From Candidatus Bathyarchaeia archaeon (lineage in GTDB: Archaea; Thermoproteota; Bathyarchaeia; 40CM-2-53-6), in contig JBEKVV010000003.1 of NCBI GenBank assembly GCA_049513715.1, forward strand, positions 64,001 through 128,000: a stretch of 64,000 bases of DNA. The letters run 5' to 3'. Below, in pieces: positions 3,141 to 58,325 of this stretch. The position numbers and the translations under genes are program-made. Within the stretch, counting starts at the first letter, position 1. The number at the start of each line of letters is the position of its first letter. The notes beneath the pieces were generated by a model. It was not told where the DNA came from, did not search any database, and saw nothing but the letters and a program-made list of their open reading frames with translations.

Positions 3141-3192
3141 GTGTGTGAGTCTAGTGGTGCGAGCATCGTGATTTGAACCGTCAGTTCAGGCG
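3141..3192 (+). repeat. Dyad site plus tRNA-T-loop-like linker
   Basis: GTGTGTGAGT-CTAG-TGGTGCG-N9-ATTTGAACCGTCAGTTCAGGCG. Confidence 0.85.
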
Positions 3193-3199
3193 TTATTTC

Positions 3200-3222
3200 G
3201 TGTGTGTGGGTATGCTGGTGCG
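3200..3222 (+). repeat. Dyad site, left arm and core intact (attL-like)
   Basis: GTGTGTGTGGGT-ATGC-TGGTGCG followed by unrelated sequence. Confidence 0.85.
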
Positions 3223-3238
3223 TTGCTAAATTGGCATA

Positions 3239-3454
3239 TCATGGTTTCTCCACTCTCCGTTCCACCCTGACGTTGAGGTGGCCCGGATTGTCGGCTGCGA
3301 GTGGCGGCAAGAGGTGCGACAACAGTTGCTCTGCGCTGAGCCGGTGGACTATACCGGTTGGACCGGTTTGTGTCCAGCCGTTGTTCTCTTTGAGGTAGCT
3401 CCATGTCCGGCCACGTTTGGTTGTGATGTAAATCACGCAGTCAGTGTTCTTCAT
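3239..3454 (-). CDS. 71-aa hypothetical protein (cassette cargo)
   Basis: ATG start, compact ORF filling the interval between two identical 14-bp cores. Confidence 0.6.
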   Translation of the reverse strand: MKNTDCVIYITTKRGRTWSYLKENNGWTQTGPTGIVHRLSAEQLLSHLLPPLAADNPGHLNVRVERRVEKP

Positions 3455-3519
3455 GGCTTCTCCACTACCTCGAATTCCTTGTACTCCATGTCTTCCATCT
3501 TGTAGTCTATTCGGTTACA

Positions 3520-3542
3520 GGTATGCTGGTGCGCACACACAC
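3520..3542 (+). repeat. Dyad site, core and right arm intact (attR-like)
   Basis: GGT-ATGC-TGGTGCG-CACACACAC preceded by unrelated sequence. Confidence 0.85.
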
Positions 3543-3649
3543 AATTACCGCATGAACTTCATTATGGTTGCTCTCATCGCTAGGCGCACGGGAAAAGGTG
3601 TTATTGATTGGTTCTTGAATTCATAGGTAGGACAGATGTGGTTCATCGG

Positions 3650-4039
3650 TTAGGACAAGCGCACCCTGACGAAGACATATTCGGATAGAGCCTTCAGTGG
3701 TTTTACTAGGTCTACCGGTCCTCCAGAAATGTGAACAATTGACTGGAGCGAATGGGAACTCGTCTTTTCGATTCGCACTTGGCGATCGTCTACATAAACA
3801 ACGCCAGACAGGGCGTCCATGATGCATTTTGCTACGTTGTCAACATCGACACGCCGTCGTTTTGTGTGGAAGTAGTCAACGAAGATGTGGACTTTCTGAT
3901 TCGATGCGGGGTGTGAGAAGGCACGTCGAGCTATTTTCCGGACGGTTCTCTTGTAGGCCTTTGCGAGTGGTGATCGGAAGGATATTGCACGACCCGGTAC
4001 GACGATACGATATTCCGGAATCGAATACGTGTATATCAC
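3650..4039 (-). CDS. rusA: RusA-family Holliday junction resolvase-like endonuclease
   Basis: RusA motif 'DVDNVAKCIMDALSGVVYVDDRQV'. Confidence 0.85.
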   Translation of the reverse strand: MIYTYSIPEYRIVVPGRAISFRSPLAKAYKRTVRKIARRAFSHPASNQKVHIFVDYFHTKRRRVDVDNVAKCIMDALSGVVYVDDRQVRIEKTSSHSLQSIVHISGGPVDLVKPLKALSEYVFVRVRLS

Positions 4040-4053
4040 GAAACAAGCACCTT

Positions 4054-4299
4054 CTAGTAGAGAATGATCTTATCAACTTCCTTTCGCGGGAAGATCCAGA
4101 CATCAGCTTCAGGCTCAATATGTCTGCGGCGAAACCGCTTCAGTGGGCCCAAATCAGCCTCATCAGTTACGGTATTCAGCAAAACTACCGAATGCTTATT
4201 CTCGAAATACAGGAAGCCCGCTCTCTTGATATTGCCAGTGATAACCTCACAAGATCGCAGAAATGGCTTCCTTAATTGCCTCAGCTTTTTCTTGACCAT
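4054..4299 (-). CDS. Hypothetical protein (81 aa)
   Basis: ATG ORF 14 nt upstream of rusA, same strand. Confidence 0.6.
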   Translation of the reverse strand: MVKKKLRQLRKPFLRSCEVITGNIKRAGFLYFENKHSVVLLNTVTDEADLGPLKRFRRRHIEPEADVWIFPRKEVDKIILY

Positions 4300-4348
4300 A
4301 TTGTTTCAACCTCGGTATGAGATAATAGCGCTTGTGTCAGTGTTTTCT

Positions 4349-4387
4349 GGGGGGGGTCTCGTGGTGCGGCCGGTCAAATTTGAACCG
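4349..4387 (+). repeat. Dyad site (G-tract arm), closest mimic of tRNA-Gly 3' end
   Basis: G8T-CTCG-TGGTGCGGCCGgtcaaATTTGAACC versus tRNA-Gly TGGTGCGGCCGccgggATTTGAACC. Confidence 0.85.
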
Positions 4388-4411
4388 TTAGGTTTGGACG
4401 TGTTTTTTTTT

Positions 4412-4452
4412 GGGGGGGTGGGTATGCTGGTGCGAGCACCCGAATTTGAACC
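4412..4452 (+). repeat. Dyad site (G-tract arm) plus T-loop motif
   Basis: G7TGGGT-ATGC-TGGTGCG-N9-ATTTGAACC. Confidence 0.85.
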
Positions 4453-4970
4453 AGTCAGTCCGCTGGTCCGTTGGAGTCGAGGGCATAGAACAAACGGACG
4501 CATGAGAAATGACGTGAACAGCTTCCTCAATGGACCATCCGAGATCGGGCATAGATGCATCCCTATGGTCCCTATCATGAACGACACCCATAACGGGTAA
4601 CGAAACAACTAGGTAACGAAAACAAACGACCCAGTACCTGGGGTAGATGACATTTGCAGGTACACAGACCAACCAGCATCAAATCGTTCTGGACTGAAAA
4701 CTAATTCACCAAGAGTGGAGACAGCCCCCTAGAATACCAAGAACCGAAGAGAAAACCTTTGTTTGCCTATCGAATCCGATCCGAGACGCCGCCAGTGGAA
4801 CGCAAAATCACAATCCACCCACCTCCCGTTCCTCGATTATTCGCACCCAACAAACCAGAAGAAAACAAACTAGAAAACCCAACATTGATTCAAAGGTTAA
4901 AATAGCGGGCTTTTCATTTCAACCGCCGAAGAATCCAAGCACAGCTTTGTAGTTCGGGAGGGTTTGTACA

Positions 4971-5177
4971 TTGAATGTTCGCGAGTTTCTCGATTCAACC
5001 AAACGCCTGATTCACGTTACAACGAAACCGTCACGCGACGAACTCAGCCTCATGGTTAAGATCAGCTTCTTGGGCGTTACGATTATTGGCGTGCTTGGAT
5101 ACATCATAAGAGTCCTATTCCTATTCCTCAACCTCTTGCCCCAGACACAGACTGGAACGACCGGAGCCACACCGTAA
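4971..5177 (+). CDS. secE: Protein translocase SecE/Sec61-gamma
   Basis: KPSRDE motif, single TM, conserved position before spt5. Confidence 0.95.
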   Translation: MNVREFLDSTKRLIHVTTKPSRDELSLMVKISFLGVTIIGVLGYIIRVLFLFLNLLPQTQTGTTGATP

Positions 5178-5680
5178 TGAGCACCGAGCGCAAGATGCTC
5201 ATCTATGCGGTTCGCACAACCAGCGGCCAAGAAAGAACCGTCGTGGACCTAATCGCCTCAAGGACTGCGCTGAAGAAGCTACCAATCGCAAGCGTACTCG
5301 CACCGGATGTCGTAAAAGGTTACATTTTCGTGGAATCCGCTGGCCCGCACTACGTGGACGACCTCATCGCGGGCGTTAGGCACGCAAGGGCCCGAACCAA
5401 AGGCGTCATTTCACCAGAAGCACTGGACAGGTTCATCGTCACAAAACCAGTCGTTGAAGACCTTCAAGTTGGCGATTCAGTCGAAGTCGTAAGCGGGCCG
5501 TTCAGGGGTTTGAAGGCACGAATCATCAATATCGACAAGTTGAAGGAAGAGGTGACTATCGAACTCTTGGAGGAAGGTTTCGCAACACTCCCCATCACGG
5601 TGCATGCTGATTACGTGAAGCTCACTAGCAGAGGCAGTCCAGGAAGTAGTGCAGAAGTTGGGCGACAAGAAGCAAGTTGA
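5177..5680 (+). CDS. spt5: Transcription elongation factor Spt5 (NusG)
   Basis: YAVRTTSGQE, KGYIFVE, KOW motif GDSVEVVSGPFRG. Confidence 0.97.
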   Translation: MSTERKMLIYAVRTTSGQERTVVDLIASRTALKKLPIASVLAPDVVKGYIFVESAGPHYVDDLIAGVRHARARTKGVISPEALDRFIVTKPVVEDLQVGDSVEVVSGPFRGLKARIINIDKLKEEVTIELLEEGFATLPITVHADYVKLTSRGSPGSSAEVGRQEAS

Positions 5681-6149
5681 AGCGTTACTGAACGGCGGCG
5701 AAGCTAACGCTGGCCCACCCCTAGGCCCAGCACTTGGTCCGCTTGGTGTGAATGTTCTTCAAATCGTCAACCGCATCAACGAATTAACCAAAGCATACGC
5801 GGGCATGAAAGTTCCAGTCCGCGTCGTCGTTGACACTGATACGAAAGAATTCGAAGTTGAGATTGGGACTCCCACAACATCCGCGCTCATAGTCAAAGAG
5901 CTGGGAATCCAGAAAGGCTCGGGGAGCCCGAAAGCCGAGAAGGTTGGCAATTTGACGATGGAGCAAGTCGTCAAAATAGCTAACATGAAAATGCCGAGCA
6001 GCTACGCGAAATCACCCAAGACCTCAGCGAAGGAAGTCATGGGTACCTGCGTCAGCCTAGGCATAACGATAGAGGGCAAGGACCCCCGCGAAGCCCAGAA
6101 GGAACTGGACCAAGGCAAATGGGACCAAGCGTTCCAGAAAACTGGTTGA
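5658..6149 (+). CDS. rpl11: 50S ribosomal protein L11 (uL11)
   Basis: GGEANAGPPLGPALGPLG; likely TTG start at 5658. Confidence 0.97.
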   Translation: MGDKKQVEALLNGGEANAGPPLGPALGPLGVNVLQIVNRINELTKAYAGMKVPVRVVVDTDTKEFEVEIGTPTTSALIVKELGIQKGSGSPKAEKVGNLTMEQVVKIANMKMPSSYAKSPKTSAKEVMGTCVSLGITIEGKDPREAQKELDQGKWDQAFQKTG

Positions 6150-6185
6150 CCAAAGAACCGGTACGGTGTGTCTCGGTTTCCCCAA

Positions 6186-6845
6186 CTAGACGCCTAATGC
6201 TCGGGTTACCTGCATCAATTCTGCGCCGCGAGTCAACGGGCCGACGACCGCGCCCTTCGAGTTAGCTAGGATCCCAGACTTCACAAAGGGCACACCGCCA
6301 TTCGTCGAACTGGCATCGACCTCAACATGCAGGGCTGATTCAATCACCGATCGTTCCTCTTGGATGGCATTGGGGCTGACCAGTGCGCCTTTGTTCGTGG
6401 CGATGGCGAGGGCTCCGACAAATGAGAGCGTTCCAATCTTTCCTGATGCGGGCTCCACGCCCAGGTCACTCAATACACTCTCCAGAATCTCCAAAGGCGC
6501 GTCTGGGTGGACGACGGCTCCGAGGTCGTTTGTGAGAACAACATTCCCTAGGGCTGTCCACTTTGAATTTACGACGACGACTTTAGTGAGTTTCTGGATT
6601 CTTTCGAGCTCGTAGTCATTTATGATGTGCGGGACCAGGACGGCGTTCGAATTGCCTGTAACCAAGGCGCCTACTAAGGTAGAGCCTCCGATGGTTGTTT
6701 TGCAGACCTCAACACCGAGGGTTTCGGCGAACTGGTTAATTCTGCGGTTCGGCAGTCCCGGTGGAACGATGGCTACGTTCTCGTTGCAGAAGCAATAGAC
6801 GCCAATGTTCGGGCTACCGAAGACGTCTGCGAGGATTACCGCCAA
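6186..6845 (-). CDS. eif6: Translation initiation factor aIF-6
   Basis: GSPNIGVY, GNSNAVL, GNVVLTND repeats. Confidence 0.96.
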   Translation of the reverse strand: MAVILADVFGSPNIGVYCFCNENVAIVPPGLPNRRINQFAETLGVEVCKTTIGGSTLVGALVTGNSNAVLVPHIINDYELERIQKLTKVVVVNSKWTALGNVVLTNDLGAVVHPDAPLEILESVLSDLGVEPASGKIGTLSFVGALAIATNKGALVSPNAIQEERSVIESALHVEVDASSTNGGVPFVKSGILANSKGAVVGPLTRGAELMQVTRALGV

Positions 6846-6875
6846 ACCAATTCACATTGCGACGAAGGCTAAGTC

Positions 6876-7340
6876 CTACGAGGCCTTCGTAGGGTAGACT
6901 ACGACCTTACCTTCCTTATCCTTGACCGCGCGCACAGTAATCTTTCGTGGGGGCTTGTTGATGCTTCGGGCCCAAATGGCCTCGTTAATCTCGTTGCTGA
7001 TGGAGACCTCTTCTGCTTTCATGTGACGGGACACGAAGTTCCTAACGTCCCTAACGGCGCGTGGTGCTCTCCTGCCGCGTGGCGTTACGACCCAGACGTG
7101 TCGGAGGGGGATTGTGTAGACTTTCTCTTCAACGACTTCAATTTCTTCCTCTCCTTCCCCTTCTTCAGCCTCAACTTCTTCTGCGGCTGGTGGGGTTTCT
7201 ACTGATTCTTCGGCTTCTTCCTCCGGCTCTGCCGTTCCTTCTTCTGCGGAGACTTCTTCGGTTGCTGGTAGCTCCGTCTCGTCGATCTCTTCTGCTGGTT
7301 CCTCTACGGTTTCTTCTTTTTTCGTTTCAGGTTCACTCAT
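6876..7340 (-). CDS. rpl31e: 50S ribosomal protein L31e with acidic N-terminal extension
   Basis: YTIPLR..RAPRAV..IWARSINKPPRKI; about 70-aa Glu-rich leader. Confidence 0.95.
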   Translation of the reverse strand: MSEPETKKEETVEEPAEEIDETELPATEEVSAEEGTAEPEEEAEESVETPPAAEEVEAEEGEGEEEIEVVEEKVYTIPLRHVWVVTPRGRRAPRAVRDVRNFVSRHMKAEEVSISNEINEAIWARSINKPPRKITVRAVKDKEGKVVVYPTKAS

Positions 7341-7353
7341 TGCTTCATGCCTT

Positions 7354-7509
7354 CTATGCTTTCATCGTGGTTCTGCGCCATGACCTCTTCTTTGGGTGAG
7401 TTCGAGTGTGTCCTTCGGTTTTGGCGATGACCCAAGTGGGTACAGCTTTCCTAGTCTTGGACGCCCTAGCGAGTCTGCGCTTTCTTGCGGTGGGTTTGTT
7501 CCTTGCCAC
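7354..7509 (-). CDS. rpl39e: 50S ribosomal protein L39e (missed by ORF track)
   Basis: Hand translation from GTG: MARNKPTARKRRLARASKTRKAVPTWVIAKTEGHTRTHPKKRSWRRTTMKA*; canonical position. Confidence 0.93.
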   Translation of the reverse strand: MARNKPTARKRRLARASKTRKAVPTWVIAKTEGHTRTHPKKRSWRRTTMKA

Positions 7510-7512
7510 TGG

Positions 7513-7860
7513 TCATGCTCTCCTGATTCGGATTTCTTTGCGTGACGATTGAAGTTTTGCTAGCGCATCCTTAAGCTGGTCGTCAGAAATGGGTAATTTC
7601 ACTCTTCCTGACTGGGCCAGCTGGATTAGTTGAAGTTCGACTTGGTCTGCGAATTCTGGTTTTACCATTCTTATGTTCGTCAATCTCTGCCTCGCCTCAG
7701 GGGTGAGTATCTGCTTGAGGGCAGCCTGTTTTTGAGCGTCATATTGCTTTCGAGTCTCCGCCTGCCTCTGTTCATCCATCGCGGCACGTTGAAGTTCCGA
7801 GTATCTCCTTTGCCTGATTGTGTTTAGTTCCTCGTCAGAGTACTCGTCCTCTTCACTCAT
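7513..7860 (-). CDS. PDCD5/TFAR19-like dsDNA-binding protein
   Basis: ILTPEARQRLTNIRMVKPEFA motif. Confidence 0.93.
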   Translation of the reverse strand: MSEEDEYSDEELNTIRQRRYSELQRAAMDEQRQAETRKQYDAQKQAALKQILTPEARQRLTNIRMVKPEFADQVELQLIQLAQSGRVKLPISDDQLKDALAKLQSSRKEIRIRRA

Positions 7861-7862
7861 CA

Positions 7863-8306
7863 CTACTGGCCTTCCGCCTTCTTGGCATTCTTGAGAATGT
7901 CGGCGGCCATACGATTGAGAAGGCTGATTCCTTCAGCTGTGAGTTTCCTGCCTTTCTTCGCCTCAACACCGATGAACCCCGCTTTCTGGAGTTGTTGGAG
8001 CGGCTCCCTGATGGCTGAGCCTCCAGCGGCCCGTGAGTGTTCAATGTGTGTGCCCTTGCGTAGGCGGCCTCCGTATTCGACTCTTAGGCGGGCTATTCCT
8101 ACTGGGCCGTGCAGGTACAGTTTCCGTAACAGAGAAGCGCAGCGCGTATACCACCAATCTGGGTTCGAAGGTGGGCGTTCCTTATGAGACCCTGTCTTCG
8201 CGGTCATTGCCCAAGTGGGGGGCGCCACTTCACCAACATTTTCCTTCAGGAATTTCGACAGACTGTCGATTAGCGTGTCTGAGGGAACTTCCAGTGGTGT
8301 TGGCAT
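7863..8306 (-). CDS. rps19e: 30S ribosomal protein S19e
   Basis: KTGSHKERPP..DWWYTRCASLLRKLY; likely start ATG 8306. Confidence 0.97.
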   Translation of the reverse strand: MPTPLEVPSDTLIDSLSKFLKENVGEVAPPTWAMTAKTGSHKERPPSNPDWWYTRCASLLRKLYLHGPVGIARLRVEYGGRLRKGTHIEHSRAAGGSAIREPLQQLQKAGFIGVEAKKGRKLTAEGISLLNRMAADILKNAKKAEGQ

Positions 8307-8368
8307 CGAATTTCCATCCGGTAGATGAGTCTTCAGGTTAGAATCGGAGAGGCCCATATAAGGTTAGT

Positions 8369-8677
8369 TTAGCGCCGAACACGATTCGCAGTCAAGCTTG
8401 AAATCTTTTTCTTAACTGTGGCCAATTCTCGCTTCTTGTAGAGCGAAAAGGTGTGACCCATTACTTCTACAAGTGTTGCCCCAGTCGACGCAGCCACATT
8501 CTTAGCCAAATCATCAGTGTGAGTTTCTTCTAACGCTGATCTTTGAACTTTGACCTTCACTAGCTCTCGGGCCTTAAGCTGACTTCGCACGTGGTTCAAG
8601 AGGTCCTCTGTCGTTCCTTCCTTCCCGATCCATATTGTAGCGTCGGTATGGCGGGACCGTACCTGAAGTGATCTCAT
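8369..8677 (-). CDS. yhbY: YhbY/CRM-domain RNA-binding protein
   Basis: IWIGKEG...QLKARELVKVK...MGHTFSLYK; start uncertain. Confidence 0.9.
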   Translation of the reverse strand: MRSLQVRSRHTDATIWIGKEGTTEDLLNHVRSQLKARELVKVKVQRSALEETHTDDLAKNVAASTGATLVEVMGHTFSLYKKRELATVKKKISSLTANRVRR

Positions 8678-9012
8678 GCGTTTCTTTTCGAAAGCCGTTC
8701 CCTCACTGTTGGGTATCGCTTCTTGGTTCCACATTCCAGGCAGGTGATTAATACCGTTGTCCCAAACTCGGTTCTTGTTCTTACGCGGCAATTAACGCCT
8801 GGAACGAGGAGGCTGCCGCAGCTCTTGCACAGGAATATCTTCTCCTCTTTAGGTATTCGAACTCCAGCCTTCATGCCGACGTATCGCGCAATCTCAACGT
8901 AACGCTTTGCCAAGTGCCGGTCCTTGGAGAACGCATCTTTGGCAAGCCCGAGCAGAATTTGGATTCGCTCACGGGCGATTTCTTTGGTGTTTCCGCTTCT
9001 TCTCCAAGCCAA
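8674..9012 (-). CDS. rnp4: RNase P protein component 4 (Rpp21)
   Basis: IARERIQIL, CKSCGSLLVPG, CLECG..KRYP; start uncertain. Confidence 0.93.
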   Translation of the reverse strand: MAWRRSGNTKEIARERIQILLGLAKDAFSKDRHLAKRYVEIARYVGMKAGVRIPKEEKIFLCKSCGSLLVPGVNCRVRTRTEFGTTVLITCLECGTKKRYPTVRERLSKRNA

Positions 9013-9102
9013 AGAACCGACCGCGGCAGTATCACTCTGCTCCACTTGTAACCTTTTTTGTAACATGAGACTAGGAGCGTGAAGAAGAAGGGTTATTGCG
9101 GT

Positions 9103-9831
9103 TTGGTACTCACCTTGGTTTTTGCCGAGTCAGCGCTTCAACTCATTCCCAAGGGGATCCAATCGCATCCTCAAATTGTGCAGTATGCGAAGCGACGGCA
9201 GAAAACCCCACCTGAAGTTCTGTTGGACAGAGCGTTTCACCACGCAGCAATGCAGCGTATACCTCGGTCCAATCGTTCCTTCCCACCGGAGACAATGGGG
9301 AGGCCTGACATCGTCCACACAAGTCTCCTTCAAGTGCTCGAGACACCTCTGAACTGGGAAGGCAAGCTTCGGGTCTTTGTTCATACACAGGACGACCAAG
9401 TGATTTCCATCAATCCTGAGATCCGACTTCCCAAGAACTACACACGGTTCGTAGGATTAATTGAGCAGTTATTCAGTGAAGGGCAAGTTCCGAAAACGGG
9501 CGAGGCTCTACTGAGCGTCGAAAAGATGCCGCTACATGGTTTGCTTAAGAAACTCAATCCTTCAAAGATTATCGCGTTCAGCATTTTGGGTAAACCCGCG
9601 TTGATGCGCGAGGTAGCAGATTCAGTATGCAAACTCAGAGAACCGTTGGCAATGATCGGCGGCTTCCCGCGCGGACATTTTACCGAATCAACCCGCAAGC
9701 AATCTCAGGCCCTGGTTAGTGTTGACCCTCAATCCTTGGACGCGTGGGTCGTTGCCGGGCGTTTTGTTTATGACTTTGAATGGTCCTTAGGGCTCGCAGA
9801 GGATAGAATAAAACAATCTCAGCACAGGTGA
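9103..9831 (+). CDS. nep1: Nep1/Emg1 16S rRNA pseudouridine N1-methyltransferase
   Basis: GRPDIVH, RLPKNYTRFVGLIEQL, IGGFPRG. Confidence 0.95.
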   Translation: MVLTLVFAESALQLIPKGIQSHPQIVQYAKRRQKTPPEVLLDRAFHHAAMQRIPRSNRSFPPETMGRPDIVHTSLLQVLETPLNWEGKLRVFVHTQDDQVISINPEIRLPKNYTRFVGLIEQLFSEGQVPKTGEALLSVEKMPLHGLLKKLNPSKIIAFSILGKPALMREVADSVCKLREPLAMIGGFPRGHFTESTRKQSQALVSVDPQSLDAWVVAGRFVYDFEWSLGLAEDRIKQSQHR

Positions 9832-10215
9832 TTGCACATGAGCGACGTAGAACTTGATAGAATCAAACGTCAGCGGTTAGTGGAGATGCAGAGAAAAATC
9901 GCTGCCAAACAACAGCAGGAGCAAACAAACACCGCGAAGCCCACTGAACCGGCGAAGGTTCTGCAGAAAGTGTTCGTGGGTCGGGCTTGGGAAGTTTACC
10001 ACGCGGCAAGACAACAGTACCCTCAGGTTGCTGACCAAATCTTCCGGGAACTTGCTGAGCTCGTTCAATCGGGACGTATCAGAGGGCCGATTACAGGAGA
10101 GCAGTTGTATGGGTTACTTCGCCAAATCGGGTTAGATGTTAGGCTCGAAACGAAGATTCAGGTTCTGGAGCACGGCGAGTTGAAGTCAGTCGCGGATAAG
10201 TTCCGCGGCAATTAA
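9832..10215 (+). CDS. Second, divergent PDCD5-like dsDNA-binding protein
   Basis: ELDRIKRQRL N-terminus; ITGEQLYGLLRQIG..VRLETKI. Confidence 0.8.
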   Translation: MHMSDVELDRIKRQRLVEMQRKIAAKQQQEQTNTAKPTEPAKVLQKVFVGRAWEVYHAARQQYPQVADQIFRELAELVQSGRIRGPITGEQLYGLLRQIGLDVRLETKIQVLEHGELKSVADKFRGN

Positions 10216-10408
10216 GGCAAAGCACCTTTGGGCAAGCTCTCGGTTTCGTGCGGTTGACCATCGCCGGGGTCCACGTACAGTTTTTCGCATTTTTCGCAAC
10301 TCCATGCCTCGTAATCCTTCAAATGCGATGGAGCAGCGCTCTCCAACCGAACCTCTACGATATACCTGCCCATGAAATTCATGGGCAATTTGCATTCGGG
10401 CACTTCAT
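10212..10408 (-). pseudogene. Small two-CxxC zinc-finger protein with apparent 1-nt frameshift near start
   Basis: ATG AAG TGC CC(-) GAA TGC would give MKCPECK...WSCEKCEK; one C missing in a C-run. Confidence 0.55.
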
Positions 10409-10710
10409 CTCATTCACCCTGAGAACCTGAGAGCATGAACTCTTTGATGCTACCTGAGATCTCTATTAGATTGTGATTTTAGGCACGAGAGTATGTCAAT
10501 ACATCATTGAAATCTCTTACTGGTTGAAGCATGAATCATAAGCGCGCGACCGTGATACGGTGAAATTGGCGGCGATTATTGAGCGATATTGACATTTGTC
10601 AGTTGCCTTCGACGCTGAGGAATTCATCCAACCTTTCGAAGATCCAATTTCCTTAGAAAAAATGGTTGGAGGGCCCTCGCCCTCCATCATGCTTCAACCT
10701 TTTCCTTGTC

Positions 10711-11646: not shown

Positions 11647-12205
11647 CGTTTCCACTTTTTTCTGTGCCGCTATTGACATACAGTGGGGTATATCAATGTT
11701 CTCCACATAGAACGTCATTGTTCCATATGGATTTCGAGACCCCTGATGGAAGAAAAGTCGCGGACAAATGACTGTCGCACTGTTACGAGCAATGAAATGA
11801 ATACGCATCAGGAAGAAGATTCACCGACCAGACCAACGTTTGGTTGGATTCTCGTTTGTGAAACTCAAAGTAGGCGACTGCGAGATTCCGGAACGATGCA
11901 ACTGACACAAATTCGTTTTTTCTCAAACCAAAATCTCCCTTCAAAGTTTCGCCGCCACATACTACGGTGGTTTATAAGCCTCGGCATATTTCGAAGACAC
12001 GAATCAAATCGGCTCTGATCCTTTTCCACGCCAGTCATTGGAACGGACTTCGACAAGCGGATTCCGTCAACACTTTCGTTCTAGGCACGAATTGCTTTCG
12101 AAGAGCGATTACAGATAAGGTGCAATCGCGATAACGAATCAGCGGCTCGCTCATGTTGAGCAACTGTTCACGAAGAGCGAATCAGGAAGCGGGATTGAAG
12201 ATATA

Positions 12206-12841: not shown

Positions 12842-12891
12842 AATGTGCTTCGATCCATCAATTGAAACTCAACTGGATCCGGTCGTAGTCA

Positions 12892-15829: not shown

Positions 15830-15859
15830 CTGCCATCTTGCTTTGAGTGTGTCCGCCCT

Positions 15860-20058: not shown

Positions 20059-20066
20059 AAGAAAAC

Positions 20067-49353: not shown

Positions 49354-51288
49354 TTGAAGAAGATTACACCTGACCAGAGTAGACTAGCTTTGGACCAAAC
49401 GGGCTGTCCCAATCGTGGGAGGGGGCGCAGGGTTCTGTTCTGCTTCTATGTGGCCCTCGTTATCGCGTCCAGCCTAGCGGTCATGTCCACTGTTATTCCA
49501 AGTCTCTTGGCCACGTTCAGCGGGTCAGAGGCGCAACCTGTCTTCGTGGGCGCGAACACTAGTGAATGGTTGCTCGACGGCAGTACATCAGCAAGAATCG
49601 CCGCTAGAGCCATAATCTTCGACACATATTCCTACACGTTATCAGTTTCGCAGCCCCTGCCGATCATGCAAGGGCAAACTGCAGTTTGCATTGTGTCCGT
49701 GAATCTGCTCAGCGGTGTTTCTCAGCTCACTCAGCTCACCGTCACCAACGTCCCATTAGGGTTGACCGCTAGCCTTGGCCAAACATCCGGAACACCGAAC
49801 CCTACATTTCAAACAATATTGACTATTGCTAGCTCGACTTCAATAGCGCCGGGTACTTATCAAATCACGGTCCAAGCTCAGTCGGGCAGCGGCGGTGGAA
49901 CTAACACCCAGACCGTCTTCATCAGCCTAACTGTCCAGCAAGCTACAACAACAACGTCTACATCGATATCCGTTTCTACTACGCACACAACTAGCACATC
50001 CACAACATTAACTAAGATTACTACAACAACACCTCTAATCACGTCGACTTTCACGGTGATCACTCCGTTTACGTCGACTTCAACGTTAGTCAGCACCTCA
50101 ACGACTAGGATTAGCACATTGGTCTTCACGGCAGTAACGCGAAACTTGCAAACAATGACGAATCTTGTGATAGCGACTGTGGCGACAGCAACTTCAACAA
50201 CGTATACTCAAAGCGCGTCGAGATCAACTACAACTAGGTTAAGCTCTTACACAACGACATCGGTCACTCGAACGTCTGCGACGCTAACTCAAACAATCTC
50301 ATTCACCCTGAAGAGTTTGTTCACAACGCCCGCCACGTCAACGACCACGCAGACCCTGTCGTCAATAGCGCCTACGACCACGTCCACGACATCTACGACG
50401 ACTGTTCCAGCTACTTTGACGGTTCCATCAACAGAGTACAGCACGACTTTTACCGGCATTTCCACCTCAACCTCAACGTCAACTCAACCGTCCACCACGT
50501 ACACCTCGACCACCCTTACCTCTTCTACAACCAGCTCACTGCCCAGCGTGTCAACATCCACGAGTTTCGTATCAAGCATGAGCACACTTAGTGTGACAAG
50601 CACCACAACGCAAACGCAGATTATCTATGTGTTAGCGTACGTGACTTCCGTTGCGTGGACATCTTTCACTGGGAACCCGTCGACCACAGTCATAACCACA
50701 TTATCCAAGGGAATTACGACGATTTTGACCAGTACGTTTTCAGTGATTTCATCGCAACTAACAACTTTAACCTCATCTACGACATCCACTTCCTCATCCA
50801 TTTCCACAACCACTTCGTCCCAAACTTCCACCTCGACTTCAACCACAACGTCAACCTCGACAAGCAGCACGACCACAACGACTACTGGCTACGTTGCCCC
50901 AAACAGTTGCACGCTGGCGGTGATATTACTCCCCAATGCTACCGGCACCGTCCCAGTGACCGTTACGTTTGCCGCGTACGCCATATCCAGCGGAAGCTCG
51001 GTTTCGTACAACTGGTTCTATGGCGACTATTACGGTGCCCAAACTACTAGCGTATCGATCGTGACTGGCCCGATGGCAACGTATACGTATCTCAACGCGG
51101 CGAATTACACCGCCGCTGTTCAGGTGCATGATTCTAGTGGCTGCTTCGCCCAATCTCACGTTGCCATTAACGTACTGAGCGGGGTGATACCGGAATTTGA
51201 CACCGGCATTTTCGCGGTATTCGCGGTGGGGCTCGTTTTGGTGCTCACTTTCGCCAACAAGATCAAGCGCGAACCGAGCCTGGATTAG
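49354..51288 (+). CDS. Thr-rich surface glycoprotein with PKD-like domain and PEF-CTERM
   Basis: SYNWFYGD PKD-like motif; IPEF+TM+KIKR. Confidence 0.82.
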   Translation: MKKITPDQSRLALDQTGCPNRGRGRRVLFCFYVALVIASSLAVMSTVIPSLLATFSGSEAQPVFVGANTSEWLLDGSTSARIAARAIIFDTYSYTLSVSQPLPIMQGQTAVCIVSVNLLSGVSQLTQLTVTNVPLGLTASLGQTSGTPNPTFQTILTIASSTSIAPGTYQITVQAQSGSGGGTNTQTVFISLTVQQATTTTSTSISVSTTHTTSTSTTLTKITTTTPLITSTFTVITPFTSTSTLVSTSTTRISTLVFTAVTRNLQTMTNLVIATVATATSTTYTQSASRSTTTRLSSYTTTSVTRTSATLTQTISFTLKSLFTTPATSTTTQTLSSIAPTTTSTTSTTTVPATLTVPSTEYSTTFTGISTSTSTSTQPSTTYTSTTLTSSTTSSLPSVSTSTSFVSSMSTLSVTSTTTQTQIIYVLAYVTSVAWTSFTGNPSTTVITTLSKGITTILTSTFSVISSQLTTLTSSTTSTSSSISTTTSSQTSTSTSTTTSTSTSSTTTTTTGYVAPNSCTLAVILLPNATGTVPVTVTFAAYAISSGSSVSYNWFYGDYYGAQTTSVSIVTGPMATYTYLNAANYTAAVQVHDSSGCFAQSHVAINVLSGVIPEFDTGIFAVFAVGLVLVLTFANKIKREPSLD

Positions 51289-54079: not shown

Positions 54080-54389
54080 GAGTTCAGTTGTGAAGAATTT
54101 AGTGTTTAACCCGGAAGTTGCTCACTTGAACAACCCAGAGCACTCGCAAACTGTAAGAAGTTGCACACTGAGACTTCACCGAAAGTGTCTCCAACCAACA
54201 ACAACGTGGCTATAAGCCCCCGCCAGCGACCGCTTACTAGCCGTAACAGAAGGTAATGACGTTACCCTTGCAAGGTAACGGTACGTCTTCGTCAGCCCGA
54301 AAGGGCTGTTACCAATCGTCTGCTAGATCATTGAGGCCCACTTTAGAACTAGTTGGGAATCACCGATTAGAAACTCATATCTGCAAATC

Positions 54390-54645
54390 TAAGGGACTAG
54401 TAAATGGAGAACCACAAACGCCAAACGAAATTGCCGAGGTCATAGGCATGAATCAGAAAACTGTTCAGATGGCTCTCATGGAGCTAGTAAGCACGAAGCC
54501 AGATGTCGCGGGGATCTTTGCAACGCAATACCCGATTCCAGAATTTGGACCAACCAATATCTCATTGACTGCAGTGGTTATTGCATTCGTCTTATGCTCC
54601 ATTGCTTTTCTGAGGAGAAGAAACGTCTACACGCAAACCTGCTGA
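54390..54645 (+). pseudogene. Chimeric remnant: wHTH fragment fused to PEF-CTERM tail
   Basis: EPQTPNEIAEVIGMNQKTVQMALMEL followed directly by YPIPEFG+TM+RRR. Confidence 0.5.
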
Positions 54646-54669
54646 GAAGAATCGGAAGACTCTCATTTC

Positions 54670-54697
54670 GTGTGGTGCCTATGGTGCGCACACAAAC
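54670..54697 (+). repeat. Dyad site
   Basis: GTGTGGTG-CCTA-TGGTGCG-CACACAAAC. Confidence 0.82.
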
Positions 54698-54808
54698 CTA
54701 AGACCATCATAGTTTCCAGTCGTTCTCAGCTTTGTAAGTACAATAAATAAAGTAGCTTGGGAACTGTAATAAGTTTAGAGATAGCTATAATGTTCCGAGG
54801 AAGGTCAA

Positions 54809-55609
54809 ATGAGAAGACTACTACTAAAAGCGGTTCTGGCTTTCGCTTTTCTACTCTTCACCTACCCGCTTGCGTCCGCACAAACAGACCATCCGGTAGC
54901 TTCTCCGTTAACAACTCAAGTCACCCTAGATGGCAGGTATACTACTGCCTCCGAATGGACCGACACCTCCGAGTTCCCCATTGAGGTGGGTGTCAGGGGA
55001 GTTGTGGCTTACTTCAGCGTCAAATACGATGCAGCTTCCATGTACTCAATCTGGGATTTCGTGGAGTGCCAAAAAATGTTCCCAGGAAATCAATCGAACG
55101 GCTACTATCCAAACCAAGTCGTAATGTACCTTGATCCCTTGAGCAAACAAACTTCTAACTCAGTTGATCCGAGCATGTACCGTATCGACGTTTTTACTGG
55201 CAGTGTGCCGACAGGGACCGTCAGAGTGTCGAAGGGCACAAATTCAGGCGGATGGGCCGATTGGGATTCTTCCAACGTCGGGATTTCCAATCGTGTTCAG
55301 TATGTCTCGTCGTCACACTCTTCGGTTTCCCACATGATACTGGAACTGAAAATTCCCCTAACTTTTGCCACTCTGAAGGCTCAAATTCCAGGCAAGATCG
55401 GTATTGGAATCGAGTTCTCTGACTACTGGACAGAGGTTCATGCAAACTATCCATCTAGCTGGGGCTGGAAGGACCCAAGCTCTTGGGGCACATTGGATTT
55501 CGCGTCAGCGCCAATACCGGAATTTTCGTTCACTAGCGTGTCGTTGATCCTGTCGGTTCTGTCCGTTGCTGTGCTCTTCAGATTGAGAAAGCGATCTGTC
55601 CTGTCTTAA
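54809..55609 (+). CDS. Secreted PEF-CTERM protein (DOMON/carbohydrate-binding-like)
   Basis: Signal peptide; TLDG...EW.D, ELKIPL; IPEF+TM+RLRKR. Confidence 0.82.
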   Translation: MRRLLLKAVLAFAFLLFTYPLASAQTDHPVASPLTTQVTLDGRYTTASEWTDTSEFPIEVGVRGVVAYFSVKYDAASMYSIWDFVECQKMFPGNQSNGYYPNQVVMYLDPLSKQTSNSVDPSMYRIDVFTGSVPTGTVRVSKGTNSGGWADWDSSNVGISNRVQYVSSSHSSVSHMILELKIPLTFATLKAQIPGKIGIGIEFSDYWTEVHANYPSSWGWKDPSSWGTLDFASAPIPEFSFTSVSLILSVLSVAVLFRLRKRSVLS

Positions 55610-55638
55610 AGCAGAAGATAGAAGACAAGCATCATTCC

Positions 55639-55682
55639 GTGTGTGTGGTATCAATGGTGTGGGCACCCAAATTTGAACCGTC
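55639..55682 (+). repeat. Dyad site plus T-loop motif
   Basis: GTGTGTGTGGTA-TCAA-TGGTGTG-N9-ATTTGAACCGTC. Confidence 0.87.
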
Positions 55683-55703
55683 GTCGTTCGTCGTCGTTTG
55701 AAA

Positions 55704-55733
55704 GTGTGTGTGGGTATGCTGGTGCGAGCACAG
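55704..55733 (+). repeat. Dyad site
   Basis: GTGTGTGTGGGT-ATGC-TGGTGCG-AGCACAG; first 23 nt identical to 3200..3222. Confidence 0.9.
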
Positions 55734-55813
55734 ATTGTTATTTCCTAATTACGCCCACGTACTCGATGCCGCGCCGCTTGATTCTTTCAAGCCGAAACAA
55801 GTTCTTCGGAAGC

Positions 55814-57124
55814 TTACTGGATTGAACCTGCTTGTCGTATGCGCTGTGAACCGCAGTCACCGCAAAACTTAGCGCGCTGAAGAAGCTTCGCTCCGCAGTT
55901 TATGCAAAATGGAGGAGTTGGCGTCGGTCCGGTGGGGGCGGTTTGCGCTGGTGAAGTGGTTTGTATCGAGTTTGCGTCGGTTGTTGGGGTCAGGTTGGCT
56001 GGTGAAGGTCTACCTCTCAAGAGTAGAAACAGTGTGGCCAGGAACAGGGCTATGAAGATGAGCATTAGGGAGCCGAACATTGTTTCAGTTGTGGGGTCTG
56101 TTGTGGTTGTTGTGCTTGTCACTATGCCGGTTATGATGATGGGGTTAGGGGTTGAGGTTGTTGTTTGGGTTGTATAGCTCGTTTGCGTCAGAAGTGAAAG
56201 TGCAGTAGCGGTCGTGGTCGTTTGTTGTTGATAGCCGTTACCTGGGGAGCAGTAGGGATAACTCGGGTCGTTTGGGTAGCAAGGAGCGGGAACCTGATTG
56301 TAACACCCATAGTAGTTACAGTTCGAATAGCAACCAGAGTAGCCGCAGTTCGAATTGCACCCATAGTAGTTACAGTTCGAGTAGCAACCATAGTAGTTGC
56401 AGTTGGTTGTATAGCAGTTGTACCCGTGGTGACATGTGCTGTACGGGGGATCCGTTGATACCGTTGTCGAGCTTGTGATCACGACAGTCGTGGTTACGGC
56501 CGATGTAGTGGGGTCAGTGGATGTGGTAGCTGTAGGGGGTGCAGACGTCGTAGATGTTGATGAAGCCGAAGTTGAAGATGCTAACGAAGTTAATGTTGTC
56601 ACGGCAGACGTCACAGGAATCGTAGCCGTCTCGGACGACGTAGCCGAAGAGGTTACGCTGGTGCTGGAAGATGTTTCACTTGTCACCGAAGATGACTCAG
56701 ATGTTGAACTCGTAGAGATTGTGGACGACCCGGATGTTGTAGACGACGACTGGTCCGTCGTGTCAGTAGACACCGATGAGGACGAAATCACGGTAGAATC
56801 CGTTGAGGACGAAACCACAGAGGTCGTCGGCGTTACAGACGTAGATTCCGTCGAAACCACAGATGTCGTTGATGTTACAGAGGTAAATTCTGTCGAAACC
56901 GTAGGGTCCGGAGACGTTGTGGAAGAGTCCGGCGACGCTGTAGACGACGAAGAGTCCGTCAGAGTAGAGTTACCTGTCTGGAAGACCCTGGCGGCGCTCG
57001 CCGTCGGGCCGCTCAAGACCAGGCCCAATAGAGCTAGGGAAATGATTACGAATACGGCAACTCGCAGATTAGGACGCACCCCTAGCAGACTCCTGTTCAT
57101 TCGTCGATTCTTCTTGCACTGCAT
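55814..57124 (-). CDS. Ser/Thr-rich membrane protein with Cys/Tyr repeats and cytoplasmic zinc ribbon
   Basis: Signal peptide, S/T stalk, (SNCNYYGCY)-type repeats, TM, FCINCG..FCGDCG. Confidence 0.82.
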   Translation of the reverse strand: MQCKKNRRMNRSLLGVRPNLRVAVFVIISLALLGLVLSGPTASAARVFQTGNSTLTDSSSSTASPDSSTTSPDPTVSTEFTSVTSTTSVVSTESTSVTPTTSVVSSSTDSTVISSSSVSTDTTDQSSSTTSGSSTISTSSTSESSSVTSETSSSTSVTSSATSSETATIPVTSAVTTLTSLASSTSASSTSTTSAPPTATTSTDPTTSAVTTTVVITSSTTVSTDPPYSTCHHGYNCYTTNCNYYGCYSNCNYYGCNSNCGYSGCYSNCNYYGCYNQVPAPCYPNDPSYPYCSPGNGYQQQTTTTATALSLLTQTSYTTQTTTSTPNPIIITGIVTSTTTTTDPTTETMFGSLMLIFIALFLATLFLLLRGRPSPANLTPTTDANSIQTTSPAQTAPTGPTPTPPFCINCGAKLLQRAKFCGDCGSQRIRQAGSIQ

Positions 57125-57287
57125 GCACTTAACTATGTCTTGTAGTTGACGTATAAACGAAATGGATGAATCATCCTTTCTGCTCCATTCTTTAGCGAAA
57201 GCCTACTAGCGGTTAGGAAGGACTCAGAAAGCAAGAACCAATGCTGAAACTGCGAATTGCGTTCATTACGATGGAATAATCGCTTCA

Positions 57288-57340
57288 GTGTGTGTGGCAC
57301 TATTGGTGCGAGCACTGGAAATCGAACCGTAAGTTCAGGC
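57288..57340 (+). repeat. Dyad site plus linker
   Basis: GTGTGTGTGGCA-CTAT-TGGTGCG-N9-AATCGAACCGTAAGTTCAGGC. Confidence 0.87.
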
Positions 57341-57348
57341 AGTTTTTT

Positions 57349-57379
57349 GTGCGTGTGTGCGCGCACCAGCGTATCCAAC
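57349..57379 (-). repeat. Dyad site
   Basis: Minus: GTTGGAT-ACGC-TGGTGCG-CGCACACACGCAC. Confidence 0.8.
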
Positions 57380-57431
57380 TCGTCAACAATGGGAGAGAGG
57401 GATGTGGCGGCAATGTGTGTTCTGAGTTTCC

Positions 57432-58163
57432 TTAACTAATAGTCGCAAGGTAGGTTAGGTTTGCGTGTGCGAGCGCATCGTTCGCTGCGGTGAAGCTACC
57501 GCCATTCAGGTCTGCGATGACTGTGCCGTTGTACATGGCTGCGAGTCCTTGTAACTGCCATCTGAGTGTGTTTCCGTTAGAGTCGGTTGCTGTGCCGCCT
57601 ATGACCAGTCGACCAAGGCTGCTCATTTGGCCTTTGCCACCGGTTATGGTGAACGTGTTTCCGTTGACAACGATCGAGCCACTTTGAATTGTCCATTGTA
57701 TTCCGCCGTTAGCCGTGTCGGTTGCTACTTGAGCGGTTATCGTTATCGAGGTGCTGTACGTTGTGACAGGGGGCATGAAGGTGCCATTCCAGCTAGGATT
57801 GATGAAGGTCTGATTCCGGTTGTGGTCGATCGCGGTCTGGTTCAGGTTCTTGTGGTTTCTGATGGTTTGATTCAGGTTGTGAAATCCGCCTGTCTGATTC
57901 CAGTTATGATTCTTGTTAGTTTGGTTCCAGTTCCGGTTTCCTGGACCCGGCATGCTGCTGGCATTGAATGGATGCGAAGGAACCGTGGCTATTCCGTACA
58001 CTGAGGTAATGGTGACCGTGGAACCCACTGGGAACTCTGTCTGTGGGTTGAAAGAGCCCGAGGCTGCCTGCGCTGATGCATTGCTGGTTGTCACCCAAAG
58101 CCCTGCAACAGTCAACGTTAGGAGGATTCCAGCTATGAGAGAATACTTCATGGTTTTCTGCAT
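57432..58163 (-). CDS. Secreted protein with N-glycosylation sequon repeats
   Basis: Signal peptide; five NQT units; beta-domain like 10711..11646. Confidence 0.8.
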   Translation of the reverse strand: MQKTMKYSLIAGILLTLTVAGLWVTTSNASAQAASGSFNPQTEFPVGSTVTITSVYGIATVPSHPFNASSMPGPGNRNWNQTNKNHNWNQTGGFHNLNQTIRNHKNLNQTAIDHNRNQTFINPSWNGTFMPPVTTYSTSITITAQVATDTANGGIQWTIQSGSIVVNGNTFTITGGKGQMSSLGRLVIGGTATDSNGNTLRWQLQGLAAMYNGTVIADLNGGSFTAANDALAHANLTYLATIS

Positions 58164-58260
58164 TTTCTTCAGCTCATTGGAACTATGCAGTGTAGTTCAC
58201 CACTTATAACCAGAGTGGACGAATCATCCACTGCATGAGTGCGCAGCTTAACCATGGCTC

Positions 58261-58325
58261 GTGGCTTGCAAGAAGTATCTACACACACACGAAAAATGAT
58301 TAAACTTACGATTCAAATTCTGTTA
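58261..58325 (-). repeat. Degenerate linker plus site (composite unit)
   Basis: Minus: GAATTTGAATCGTAAGTTTAA...TTTCGTGTGTGTGTAGAT. Confidence 0.6.

Follow-up and report, generated by a model that had tools for sequence, protein, structure and literature searches.

Which enzyme left a dispersed family of short, tRNA-related repeats among the accessory genes of a bathyarchaeal genome? The question is raised by a 64,000-nt stretch of DNA (contig JBEKVV010000003.1, positions 64,001–128,000; hereafter the window) from Candidatus Bathyarchaeia archaeon, in which the motif (TTTT)GTGTGTGGGT-N4-TGGTGCG, N4 being four variable nucleotides, recurs. A preliminary description made from these letters had listed 20 copies, had read them as inverted arms around a 4-nt centre, and had proposed an undescribed system in which a tyrosine recombinase shuffles gene cassettes at dif/pdif-, att- or integron-like sites. 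Comparison of the genome holding the window (G000; 2.79-Mb assembly) with its relatives (numbered G0xx; C and L codes denote contigs) points to another enzyme. We regard it as probable that the sites are footprints, or scars, of casposon-type integration, i.e., by a Cas1-solo transposase, at the 3′ end of tRNA-Gly, and the recombinase class originally proposed is probably wrong.

The repeat itself was confirmed. TGGTGCG occurs 18 times in the window as against 8.1 ± 3.2 times by shuffling, with none of 100 shuffles reaching 18, and an exact core is found at 17 of the 20 listed places (3155, 3216, 3527, 4362, 4428, 20043, 21264, 22163, 30458, 54682, 55720 and 57304, and on the minus strand 19506, 20097, 21977, 31074 and 57362). 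The copy listed at 55639 carries the variant TGGTGTG (28 bits in a position weight matrix), and those at 19415 and 30773 are degenerate look-alikes; the eighteenth exact core, at 42494, lies within an open reading frame (ORF), lacks arms and looks like a chance occurrence. A genome-wide scan with a weight matrix, as the preliminary description had advised, bore the repeat out: the 29-nt matrix, trained on site copies, returned 85–96 sites in G000 at cut-offs of 16–18 bits, vs 2–5 in the reversed genome; the total for G000 is put at about 86–89 copies. At 70 of the 86 sites scoring at least 18 bits, the centre lies outside ORFs of at least 120 amino acids (aa), such ORFs making up 80.5% of the genome. 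A pattern scan (control counts 0–1) recovered the motif from 21 of 22 genomes of the same genus, from neither of two genomes of other genera in the family, and from two of 16 genomes (one with 20 copies) belonging to other families of the order.

With TGGTGCG in forward orientation, a site follows the formula (TTTT)GTGTGTGTGGGT-N4-TGGTGCG, and its right-hand side takes one of two main forms. At 42 of 86 sites (T-type) the core is followed by the reverse complement of a tRNA 3′ half in decayed form (RGCAnnnnAATTTGAACCG), at 31 (C-type) by CACACACAC-AAAA, and at the remaining 13 by neither. The inverted arms reported earlier, (TTTT)GTGTGTG and CACACAC(AAAA), do exist, but only at C-type sites, and what they enclose is not a mere 4-mer: it is an asymmetric 14-nt segment, GGT-N4-TGGTGCG, whose N4 comes from a limited set (CTAG at 16 sites, CTAA at 10, ATGC at seven, CAGC and CCAG at five each, plus others). 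Sites occur singly, as tandem doublets 20–60 nt apart, or as ~100-nt composites of two inverted halves, of which G000 holds nine; other neighbouring sites are 0.3–4 kb, i.e., one to three genes, apart. A composite's two arms are dissimilar, and their N4 show no covariation. Composites showed no N4 complementarity and, by eye, no duplication outside them, and an empty palindrome, with the core joined straight to an inverted core, was not found in G000. In addition, a right-arm variant, CGACGACGACGAAAA, replaces CACACACAC-AAAA at C5:180269 and C6:66339 of G000 and in the viral contigs L042 and L047.

The origin of the core in the 3′ end of tRNA-Gly, already suspected, was confirmed. On the opposite strand TGGTGCG reads CGCACCA, i.e., the final acceptor bases of tRNA-Gly together with its CCA, and a real, intron-bearing tRNA-Gly(GCC) gene ends within the site at 22141–22169. 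This gene was placed by Rfam at 22166–22290 on the minus strand (22163–22290 with CCA; 42.4 bits), its anticodon being read off the Rfam alignment; ARAGORN reported no tRNA in the window and the Rfam scan of the window only two tRNA-type matches. A tRNA-Gly(CCC) gene on another contig, a weak Rfam match (21.5 bits) below the gathering score, has the same site arrangement, tRNA-Gly(UCC) is without it, and among the 20 tRNA 3′ ends listed only that of tRNA-Gly(GCC) carries a site. Elsewhere, 39 orphan tRNA-like fragments keep the T-loop letters. Their T-stems pair at 1.3 of 5 positions, compared to 5 of 5 in the two real tRNA-Gly genes and 1.9 by chance. Since the T-stems do not pair, the fragments are best taken as DNA signals or scars, and a folded tRNA-like RNA is ruled out. 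The fragments also share a consensus of their own, TGCYCGCACCA, unlike the host tRNA's CGGCCGCACCA. As to the tRNA genes themselves, both of those in the window, 22166–22290 (minus strand) and 30292–30436 (plus strand), hold two inserts each (34 and 25 nt in tRNA-Gly), and the Rfam model found just 19 tRNAs across G000.

The sites keep to accessory DNA. Comparison of the window with five well-assembled relatives delimited syntenic blocks at 4885–10402, 22162–26479, ~29960–30436, 32382–43870, 45055–46512 and 59518–63793, which are 64–75% identical to the relatives. As had been reported for the core blocks, none contains a site of 12 bits or more, save the tRNA-Gly 3′-end site at the edge of the second, and the proposed check of sites against synteny breakpoints placed all window sites in non-syntenic accessory islands. 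From the end of the block that starts with secE–L11 (10402) to the tRNA-Gly 3′ end, the distance is 11.7 kb here, compared with 0.8 kb (G014) and 1.4 kb (G018) in relatives. The intervening island (10403–22161) starts exactly at tRNA-Gly(GCC), and seven sites (19415–22169) fill its tRNA-proximal part. Right after the CCA of the second tRNA gene (30292–30436) comes a 1.9-kb insertion that carries the sites at 30448–31094 and is absent from G014, G018 and G017, and the sites at 54660–58330 lie within a 13-kb stretch that relatives lack between the LarC gene and trm5.

In relatives, sites of this kind accompany Cas1. ORFs of 400–440 aa matching PF01867 were found in 12 of the 22 same-genus genomes, and 13 of 15 Cas1 loci have a site of at least 12 bits within 4 kb. 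Cas1-solo genes outside CRISPR (clustered regularly interspaced short palindromic repeats)–cas loci are thus present in relatives: the ORFs of 404–416 aa on G014:C3 (404 aa), G014:C1, G004:C45 (405 aa) and G013:C3 match PF01867 with E values of ~1e-49 to 1e-53, and neither cas2 nor cas4 was present among the ORFs scanned around Cas1 loci. At five of 14 loci examined, direct repeats of the core span the Cas1 gene, four of these elements being complete and one, on G003:C14, cut by the contig start and showing a 10-nt partial repeat. The element of G004:C45 (7144 bp) lies between copies of the 14-mer GGTCAGCTGGTGCG and has a 50-nt inverted repeat of 92% identity, in the layout ...TTTTCA-GTGTGTGTGT-[GGTCAGCTGGTGCG]-CCGCCGCC...Cas1...GGCGGCGG-[GGTCAGCTGGTGCG]-AGCACCCAAATTTGAACC.... 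That of G014:C3 (10965 bp; 14-mer GGTATGCTGGTGCG) has CCGCCCCCGCC ends forming a 23-nt perfect inverted repeat, while those of G013:C3 (8615 bp; 14-mer GGTATAGTGGTGCG) and G002:C6 (5146 bp; 14-mer GGTATGCTGGTGCG) have ends identical over 9–11 nt, CACACACAC and CACCCCCCCAG, respectively. The chance of two random sites having the same core is 0.02. In all four complete elements the duplicated 14-mer abuts RGCAnnnnAATTTGAAC, which is a tRNA-Gly-like 3′ half in reverse complement, a (GT)n tract flanks the element on one outer side and a tRNA-like fragment on the other, and insertion is at the leader-proximal repeat, the leader being that fragment.

A 14-bp duplication beside a T-loop fragment is the published casposon signature, and the claim of an undescribed system is not supported. 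In the accessible part of PMC5137440, the casposase of Aciduliprofundum boonei is described as needing a 15-bp duplicated segment over the tRNA-Pro 3′ end plus the adjacent 18 bp coding for the T-loop. For Methanosarcina mazei casposons, the corresponding part of PMC4779613 describes 14-bp duplications whose ends are conserved and whose middle varies, tandem elements with one common duplication, solo ends, and tRNA-Leu targets used in both orientations. Consistent with such elements, an HNH gene lies near Cas1 in the G014 element. Directly after Cas1, and inside the same element, stands a gene for a TIR-domain (Thoeris ThsB-like) protein (G014 L105:6396–7160; L068:13396–14160), so that a defence-type gene travels as cargo.

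Because the end variants of Cas1 elements recur as arms in the window, with (GT)n at the majority of sites and G-runs at 4340, 4406, 21242 and 21977, we take each arm to be the end of an adjacent insert and the 14-mer to be a duplicated target site. Under this mechanism, the 14-nt centre (CGCACCA-N4-ACC in the tRNA direction) would be the target segment duplicated at each insertion, with N4 as its variable middle and no crossover spacer. The upstream tRNA-like fragment would act as a 'leader' that positions the enzyme, its T-loop letters kept and its fold lost, and the (GT)n/(CA)n, G-run and CCGCC-rich arms would be the terminal inverted repeats of neighbouring inserts. Islands would grow by repeated insertion, starting from tRNA-Gly(GCC) and tRNA-Gly(CCC) and continuing at portable copies of the target, and the outcome would be genes or small gene groups separated by 14-mer copies. 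Judging from the sequences, we infer that the casposase would recognize the T-loop-coding segment together with the 14-mer and make cuts staggered by 14 bp, and that Cas1-less cassettes would have been moved in trans.

That one- and two-gene modules lie between sites, as first described, holds true: Pfam confirmed RusA, GNAT, nitroreductase and pyruvoyl arginine decarboxylase (PvlArgDC), and such modules move between species. The supposed PEF-CTERM proteins gave no NCBIfam match to PEF-CTERM; a PEF motif, hydrophobic helix and basic tail can be read at the C-termini of 54256–54645, 54809–55609 and 49354–51288. Cassettes are 82–94% identical across species, vs about 70–75% for core genes. The nitroreductase segment (20110–20891) is 93% identical to G014, and the region of a 71-aa ORF (3239–3462) 94% to G004:C45 (core genes about 75%). 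A module with a 38-aa zinc-finger ORF (30451–30780) and one with a 90-aa ORF (44113–44499) are multicopy in relatives at 82–89% and multicopy at 81–91%, respectively. A metallophosphatase gene (58426–59262) is 90% identical to G013 and 98.6% to a second G000 copy at C5:169629–170442; no site directly adjoins the ends of either G000 copy. Metagenome contigs show the nitroreductase cassette in four contexts; CGCACCA-N4-(A/T)CCCACAC-AAAA precedes it in every one, with differing DNA further upstream, and two of these contexts are 98% alike over 1.26 kb and diverge exactly at the site's outer edge.

The commonest cargo is a KaiC-like gene, with nine members near sites in five genomes, most of them with a site no more than 115 nt away on both sides. 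This KaiC/RecA-like family (~235 aa, without a visible Walker A) has undergone a huge expansion in the genus, with members at G000 C7:2509–3207 and 11 further places and as many as 26 matches in G016, and often forms a single-gene unit between two sites; its distribution does not follow that of the motif. When 509 ORFs close to sites in seven genomes were clustered, cargo families emerged (KaiC-like with nine, nitroreductase with five) and no enzyme. Of the 187 G000 island ORFs, 150 were scanned; apart from one integrase and one DDE transposase, they were ordinary genes.

Some inserts combine identical flanking 14-mers and CACACAC...GTGTGTG ends with the absence of Cas1: a KaiC-like gene in G019 (L060 6724–7588; GGATCAATGGTGCG), a 1-kb segment of G000 (C5:167006–168075) and at least two further segments in relatives. 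Among adjacent direct site pairs of gene-size spacing, cores are identical in four of 41 in relatives (null 0.023, p = 0.014) and one of 16 in G000 (p = 0.26); for inverted pairs the figures are one of 36 and one of 17. These comparisons suggest trans-mobilization of small cassettes. A bolder extension, possible yet rather doubtful in our view, is that in this genus a gene-cassette system came to be driven by the casposase, or formerly was, with short-ended cassettes of one gene each, lacking Cas1, being inserted in trans at a portable unit of leader and 14-bp repeat that stems from tRNA-Gly. If so, which we hold equally tentatively, the resulting repeat–insert–repeat arrays would be an archaeal counterpart of integrons and a living intermediate on the way from casposon sites to CRISPR arrays.

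Several observations weigh against casposon-type integration. Simple serial insertion does not predict the low counts of direct pairs with identical 14-mers given above, N4 is seldom identical between the two flanks of a cassette, and the ~45% of gene-size neighbour sites that are inverted are likewise not predicted. (Inverted gene-size pairs in G000 comprise 13 of the (−,+) and two of the (+,−) arrangement, a bias not reproduced in relatives, 16 vs 9, p = 0.23.) A 297-bp insert in the window (3223–3519) has no inverted ends, and its G004 copy no adjoining sites. Nine of 14 Cas1 loci are without a clean duplication, and the second Cas1 locus of G014 has no inverted ends. In none of three Cas1 elements checked did a scan of ORFs (≥80 aa for the G014 element, ≥110 aa for those of G004 and G013) detect the family-B polymerase domain PF00136, and these three elements are therefore not casposons in the strict sense. 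The dispersal of the 39 leader-like fragments has no account in the casposon model, and the (CA)n arm could be target flank, not element end. In four metagenome runs, contigs agree exactly with the window and show neither insertion nor excision variants at sites; across 12001–32000 they contain no excision, inversion or empty-site forms, for which the preliminary description had recommended a search, and the joints seen there are other organisms' tRNA-Gly genes or a composite's own inverted halves. Among the sequencing runs listed, 24 DNA runs and no RNA run contain the genome, which is present in peat and wetland samples at 99–100%.

Finally, neither the window nor G000 contains Cas1 (no PF01867 match), and none was found in G018, G016 or G034, each with 20–33 pattern matches, so that present-day mobility in these four genomes is unsupported. 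With the G004 casposase as query, six C-terminal fragments were found in G000, none of them in the window; by hand comparison of coordinates, five of the six lie in site-rich islands, 0.2–1.7 kb from a site. As G000 has casposase fragments only, the sites of the window are best read as relics, either of past insertions or of imported island DNA.

Could a tyrosine recombinase have made the sites after all? This alternative, which we judge unlikely, has them as att sites of tRNA-targeting integrases from a virus or integrative element, with the CGCACCA of a circular cassette recombining with tRNA-Gly or earlier copies and leaving tRNA fragments behind. Indeed, on the viral contig L041 a 363-aa zinc-ribbon integrase starts 275 nt from a T-type site, and in relatives this integrase family lies 400–500 nt from real tRNA 3′ ends at eight of 15 loci, three of the tRNAs ending in CGCACCA. 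The 1.9-kb insertion (30436–32370) ends, within 32290–32350, with a 16-nt stretch that matches the T-loop and T-stem of the tRNA at 30292–30436 in 14 positions (hand count); it may be a decayed duplicate of the tRNA's 3′ part and, as such, a possible decayed attR. Integrase att sites and casposon targets are, moreover, described as overlapping at one tRNA of M. mazei in the accessible part of PMC4779613. The anatomy of the sites argues otherwise: the asymmetric centre spans 14 nt instead of the 6–8-bp overlap that arms enclose in tyrosine-recombinase core sites, T-type copies lack a second arm, and the repeats of Cas1 elements are short exact duplications beside inverted ends, not att identity blocks.

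Nor do the enzymes follow the motif. The expected co-occurrence with tyrosine recombinases failed to appear across genomes: G018, G007, G006, G020 and G011, carriers of 2–33 pattern matches, have no PF00589 match (E ≤ 1e-5), and G009, the same-genus genome without a pattern match, has three such integrases. G018, 98% complete and with 33 pattern matches, matches none of PF00589, PF00239 and PF01867; not even a Xer-type recombinase was detected there (PF00589, E ≤ 1e-5). The family with the C-terminal zinc ribbon occurs in only nine of 22 same-genus genomes, G014, G016, G018 and G034 not among them, and its G000 homologue (C1:532002–533024) has no site within 12 kb. Its adjacency to a site on L041 is a single case. 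A second viral homologue sits at a contig end, two of five and one of nine viral-contig pattern matches are genuine sites, with one only beside an integrase, and a spacing-corrected pattern revealed no second site copy on L041. Searches for Y1 transposases and serine recombinases gave no matches, and the window, as noted from the start, encodes no recombinase, the enzyme of the mobile-DNA system lying outside it. Of the original cassette idea, tRNA-derived insertion sites in accessory DNA and the movement of modules stand, but the class of enzyme probably does not.

Unlikelier again is that no dedicated enzyme is now at work and that the repeats, mainly their symmetric (GT)n/(CA)n arms, offer portable stretches of homology at which host homologous or microhomology-mediated recombination exchanges the intervening genes after DNA uptake. 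Homology between cassette copies does end in or at the arms with no single fixed nucleotide, the 14-nt core is found in either orientation at the same cassette end, some site-rich genomes have no recognizable recombinase, and several species live together in the same peat and wetland samples. Such a process, however, leaves unexplained the perfect 14-bp direct duplications and inverted ends of Cas1 elements and some cassettes, the conservation of an asymmetric core and T-loop letters across 21 species, and the origin of the repeat at tRNA-Gly.

The least probable account, selfish short repeats (of the miniature inverted-repeat transposable element, MITE, or repetitive extragenic palindrome/bacterial interspersed mosaic element, REP/BIME, kind) or a bidirectional terminator, with gene bracketing as a by-product, can draw on the palindromic composites and tandem doublets, on sub-families definable by the letters preceding the core, on the intergenic position of most sites and on the T-run that comes first at every site on either strand, but it is at odds with the lack of sites in intergenic DNA of the syntenic core blocks, with the differing arms and non-covarying N4 of composites, with the lack of a Y1 transposase and, for a terminator or promoter signal, which we reject, with sites at both 5′ and 3′ gene ends. 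Selfish repeats would merge with casposon-type integration if composites were non-autonomous derivatives moved by the casposase.

Within the window, the individual sites illustrate this anatomy. A tandem pair on the plus strand (3133–3222; 34.7 and 38.1 bits) consists of a T-type site (3133–3161) with its tRNA-like fragment (3162–3190) and a second site (3194–3222), whose 14-nt core, GGTATGCTGGTGCG (3209–3222, plus strand), recurs at 3520–3533. The two copies, a candidate target-site duplication, flank the 297-bp insert, whose 71-aa ORF (3239–3454) is on the minus strand. The downstream copy belongs to a half site (3520–3545, plus strand) in which the core is followed by a CACACACACA arm; it is without a (GT)n arm because the insert abuts. 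Next comes a two-gene module on the minus strand (3650–4299), comprising a RusA resolvase gene (3650–4039; Pfam) and an 81-aa ORF (4054–4299), and then a tandem T-type pair with G-run arms (4340–4434, plus strand; sites 4340–4368 and 4406–4434), whose arm matches the CACCCCCCCAG-type element end of G002.

Within the island behind tRNA-Gly, a C-type site (19506–19534, minus strand) overlaps the 3′ end of the GNAT gene (19519–19980; Pfam). A composite node (20021–20125) is made up of a plus-strand site (20021–20049), CACACAC-AAAA, a tRNA-like fragment and a minus-strand site (20097–20125), and adjoins the nitroreductase cassette (20126–20902, plus strand; gene 20227–20862, Pfam). A plus-strand site with a G-rich and a CACCCAC arm (21242–21270; 14.1 bits) precedes the single-gene module of pdaD (21334–21915, minus strand), which encodes the PvlArgDC (Pfam) and is non-syntenic in relatives; a minus-strand site with a G-run arm (21977–22005) scores 10.9 bits with an exact core. 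In the unit formed by tRNA-Gly(GCC) and its site (22141–22290, minus strand), the CGCACCA end of the gene is the core, followed by CTGG-ACCCACACAC-AAAA and the 11.7-kb island. The same island holds a family-B DNA polymerase (PolB) ORF (13949–15829; 626 aa) whose match to full-length PolB models is confined to their C-terminal half; linked to no site, this truncated gene may be the remnant of a self-replicating element. Beside it, a short repeat (15868–16049) is 88.5% identical to C8:9716–9898; metagenome contigs break there and summed contig depth rises several-fold.

Following the second intron-bearing tRNA gene (30292–30436, plus strand; Rfam) is the multicopy module of ~330 bp (30444–30790), whose 38-aa ORF has a CxxC...HxxxC pattern (30478–30594, minus strand) and whose bounds are a degenerate plus-strand site (core 30458) and a degenerate inverted site (~30760–30790). 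A minus-strand site (31066–31094; exact core 31074–31080) lies beside a dCTP deaminase gene. Farther on are a weak C-type site (54660–54688, plus strand; 15.4 bits), a plus-strand tandem pair (55633–55726) of a T-type site with the TGGTGTG variant (55633–55661) and a second site (55698–55726), and a composite node (57282–57390) with a T-type plus-strand site (57282–57310) and an inverted core (57362–57368). The last feature in the range covered by the preliminary description is a degenerate unit in tRNA orientation (58270–58330, plus strand), reading CACACACAC-GAAAA ... GATTCAAATT ... GCTCGCC. Beyond it, a DUF7557/ParE-like toxin–antitoxin pair (61088–61549) is found between trm5 and DUF371 in an otherwise syntenic block.

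After several T-type sites stands a conserved segment of ~50 nt, GCTTATATGTACCGGTAAATTGGGGTCAAAATCCCCTnnCCCATCTCTGA, with a TATA-like box followed by a T-arm-like hairpin. It occurs in G000 at C2:8892–8945, C5:166950–167005, C5:175040–175100, C6:4924–4980, C9:4630–4686 and C11:8480–8534, and at G004 L115:14768–14815, the C2 and L115 copies extending to a ...CCCCGCACCA end. The segment could be a promoter with an odd, perhaps permuted or split, tRNA-like gene.

Casposons are rare, and in most known cases each is a single large element. By the resemblances read from these loci, the system works like a casposon target and qualifies in part: Cas1, inverted ends, the duplication and the tRNA/T-loop context are all there, the polymerase is not. 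As far as the accessible parts of PMC5137440 and PMC4779613 describe AciBoo-C1 and M. mazei family-2 casposons, the likeness extends to the Cas1-solo gene, the nearby HNH (in G014), terminal inverted repeats, the 14–15-bp duplication over a tRNA 3′ end with T-loop DNA beside it, conserved duplication ends around a variable middle, tandem elements with one common duplication, solo ends and insertion either way round. Unlike the casposons covered in those parts, the target here is tRNA-Gly with a 7-nt overlap, target and leader fragment are dispersed in 40–90 copies per genome, and Cas1 is missing from many inserts, which are single accessory genes. The three elements checked also differ in having no family-B polymerase, and the window's genome in having casposase fragments only. 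A limited literature search found no description of tRNA-Gly-targeting casposons or casposase-linked gene cassettes. A whole genus carries 40–90 copies of a casposon-type target in accessory islands, with single genes between copies. Were the casposase indeed responsible for moving small cassettes, the system would be the first gene-cassette system driven by Cas1, and its natural, transposase-made arrays of leader, repeat, insert and repeat would make the casposon-to-CRISPR scenario testable with real sequences. The 14-mer with its T-loop motif is, moreover, a marker of horizontally acquired genes in these abundant peat archaea.

To our knowledge, a single shared reaction is what ties casposons to the origin of CRISPR repeats. 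CRISPR arrays have been proposed to descend from casposon targets (PMC5137440, in the part available), and, on that description, the arrangement here resembles them in having a leader-like segment and, after it, short direct repeats with inserted DNA between them. It differs in its 14-bp repeats, gene-sized inserts with inverted ends, irregular spacing, mixed orientations and lack of cas effector genes nearby. Set against the attC core consensus of integrons, GTTRRRY, the site consensus contains no attC-type R/L boxes. What the sites share with integrons and clusters of attC sites lacking integron-integrases (CALINs), including archaeal ones as presented in the accessible portion of bioRxiv 10.1101/2022.02.06.479319, is mostly single-gene, promoter-poor cassettes, imperfect palindromes of 30–110 bp and, often, no enzyme gene near. 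Unlike integrons, they have exact short duplications, inverted element ends and a tRNA-derived site, and no IntI association was noted among PF00589 matches, which were not sorted by IntI features. The pdif sites of Acinetobacter plasmids are Xer sites whose two 11-bp arms lie on either side of a 6-bp spacer. Like pdif modules, those described here are small, lie between short, often inverted sites and have their enzyme encoded elsewhere; unlike them, they have a duplicated 14-nt centre, and no Xer-type enzyme follows the sites. In archaea, 'gene capture' refers to tRNA-anchored islands built by tyrosine-recombinase elements. Tycheposons, too, in the portion of bioRxiv 10.1101/2020.12.28.424599 available, form islands that begin at a tRNA, with older elements pushed inwards and partial tRNA fragments scattered, as seen here. 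Both differ from the present system in the class of enzyme, in its much smaller modules and in its fragments, which carry their own consensus TGCYCGCACCA and not that of the host tRNA. The resemblance to integron arrays and tRNA-anchored islands is thus one of outcome, not of mechanism.

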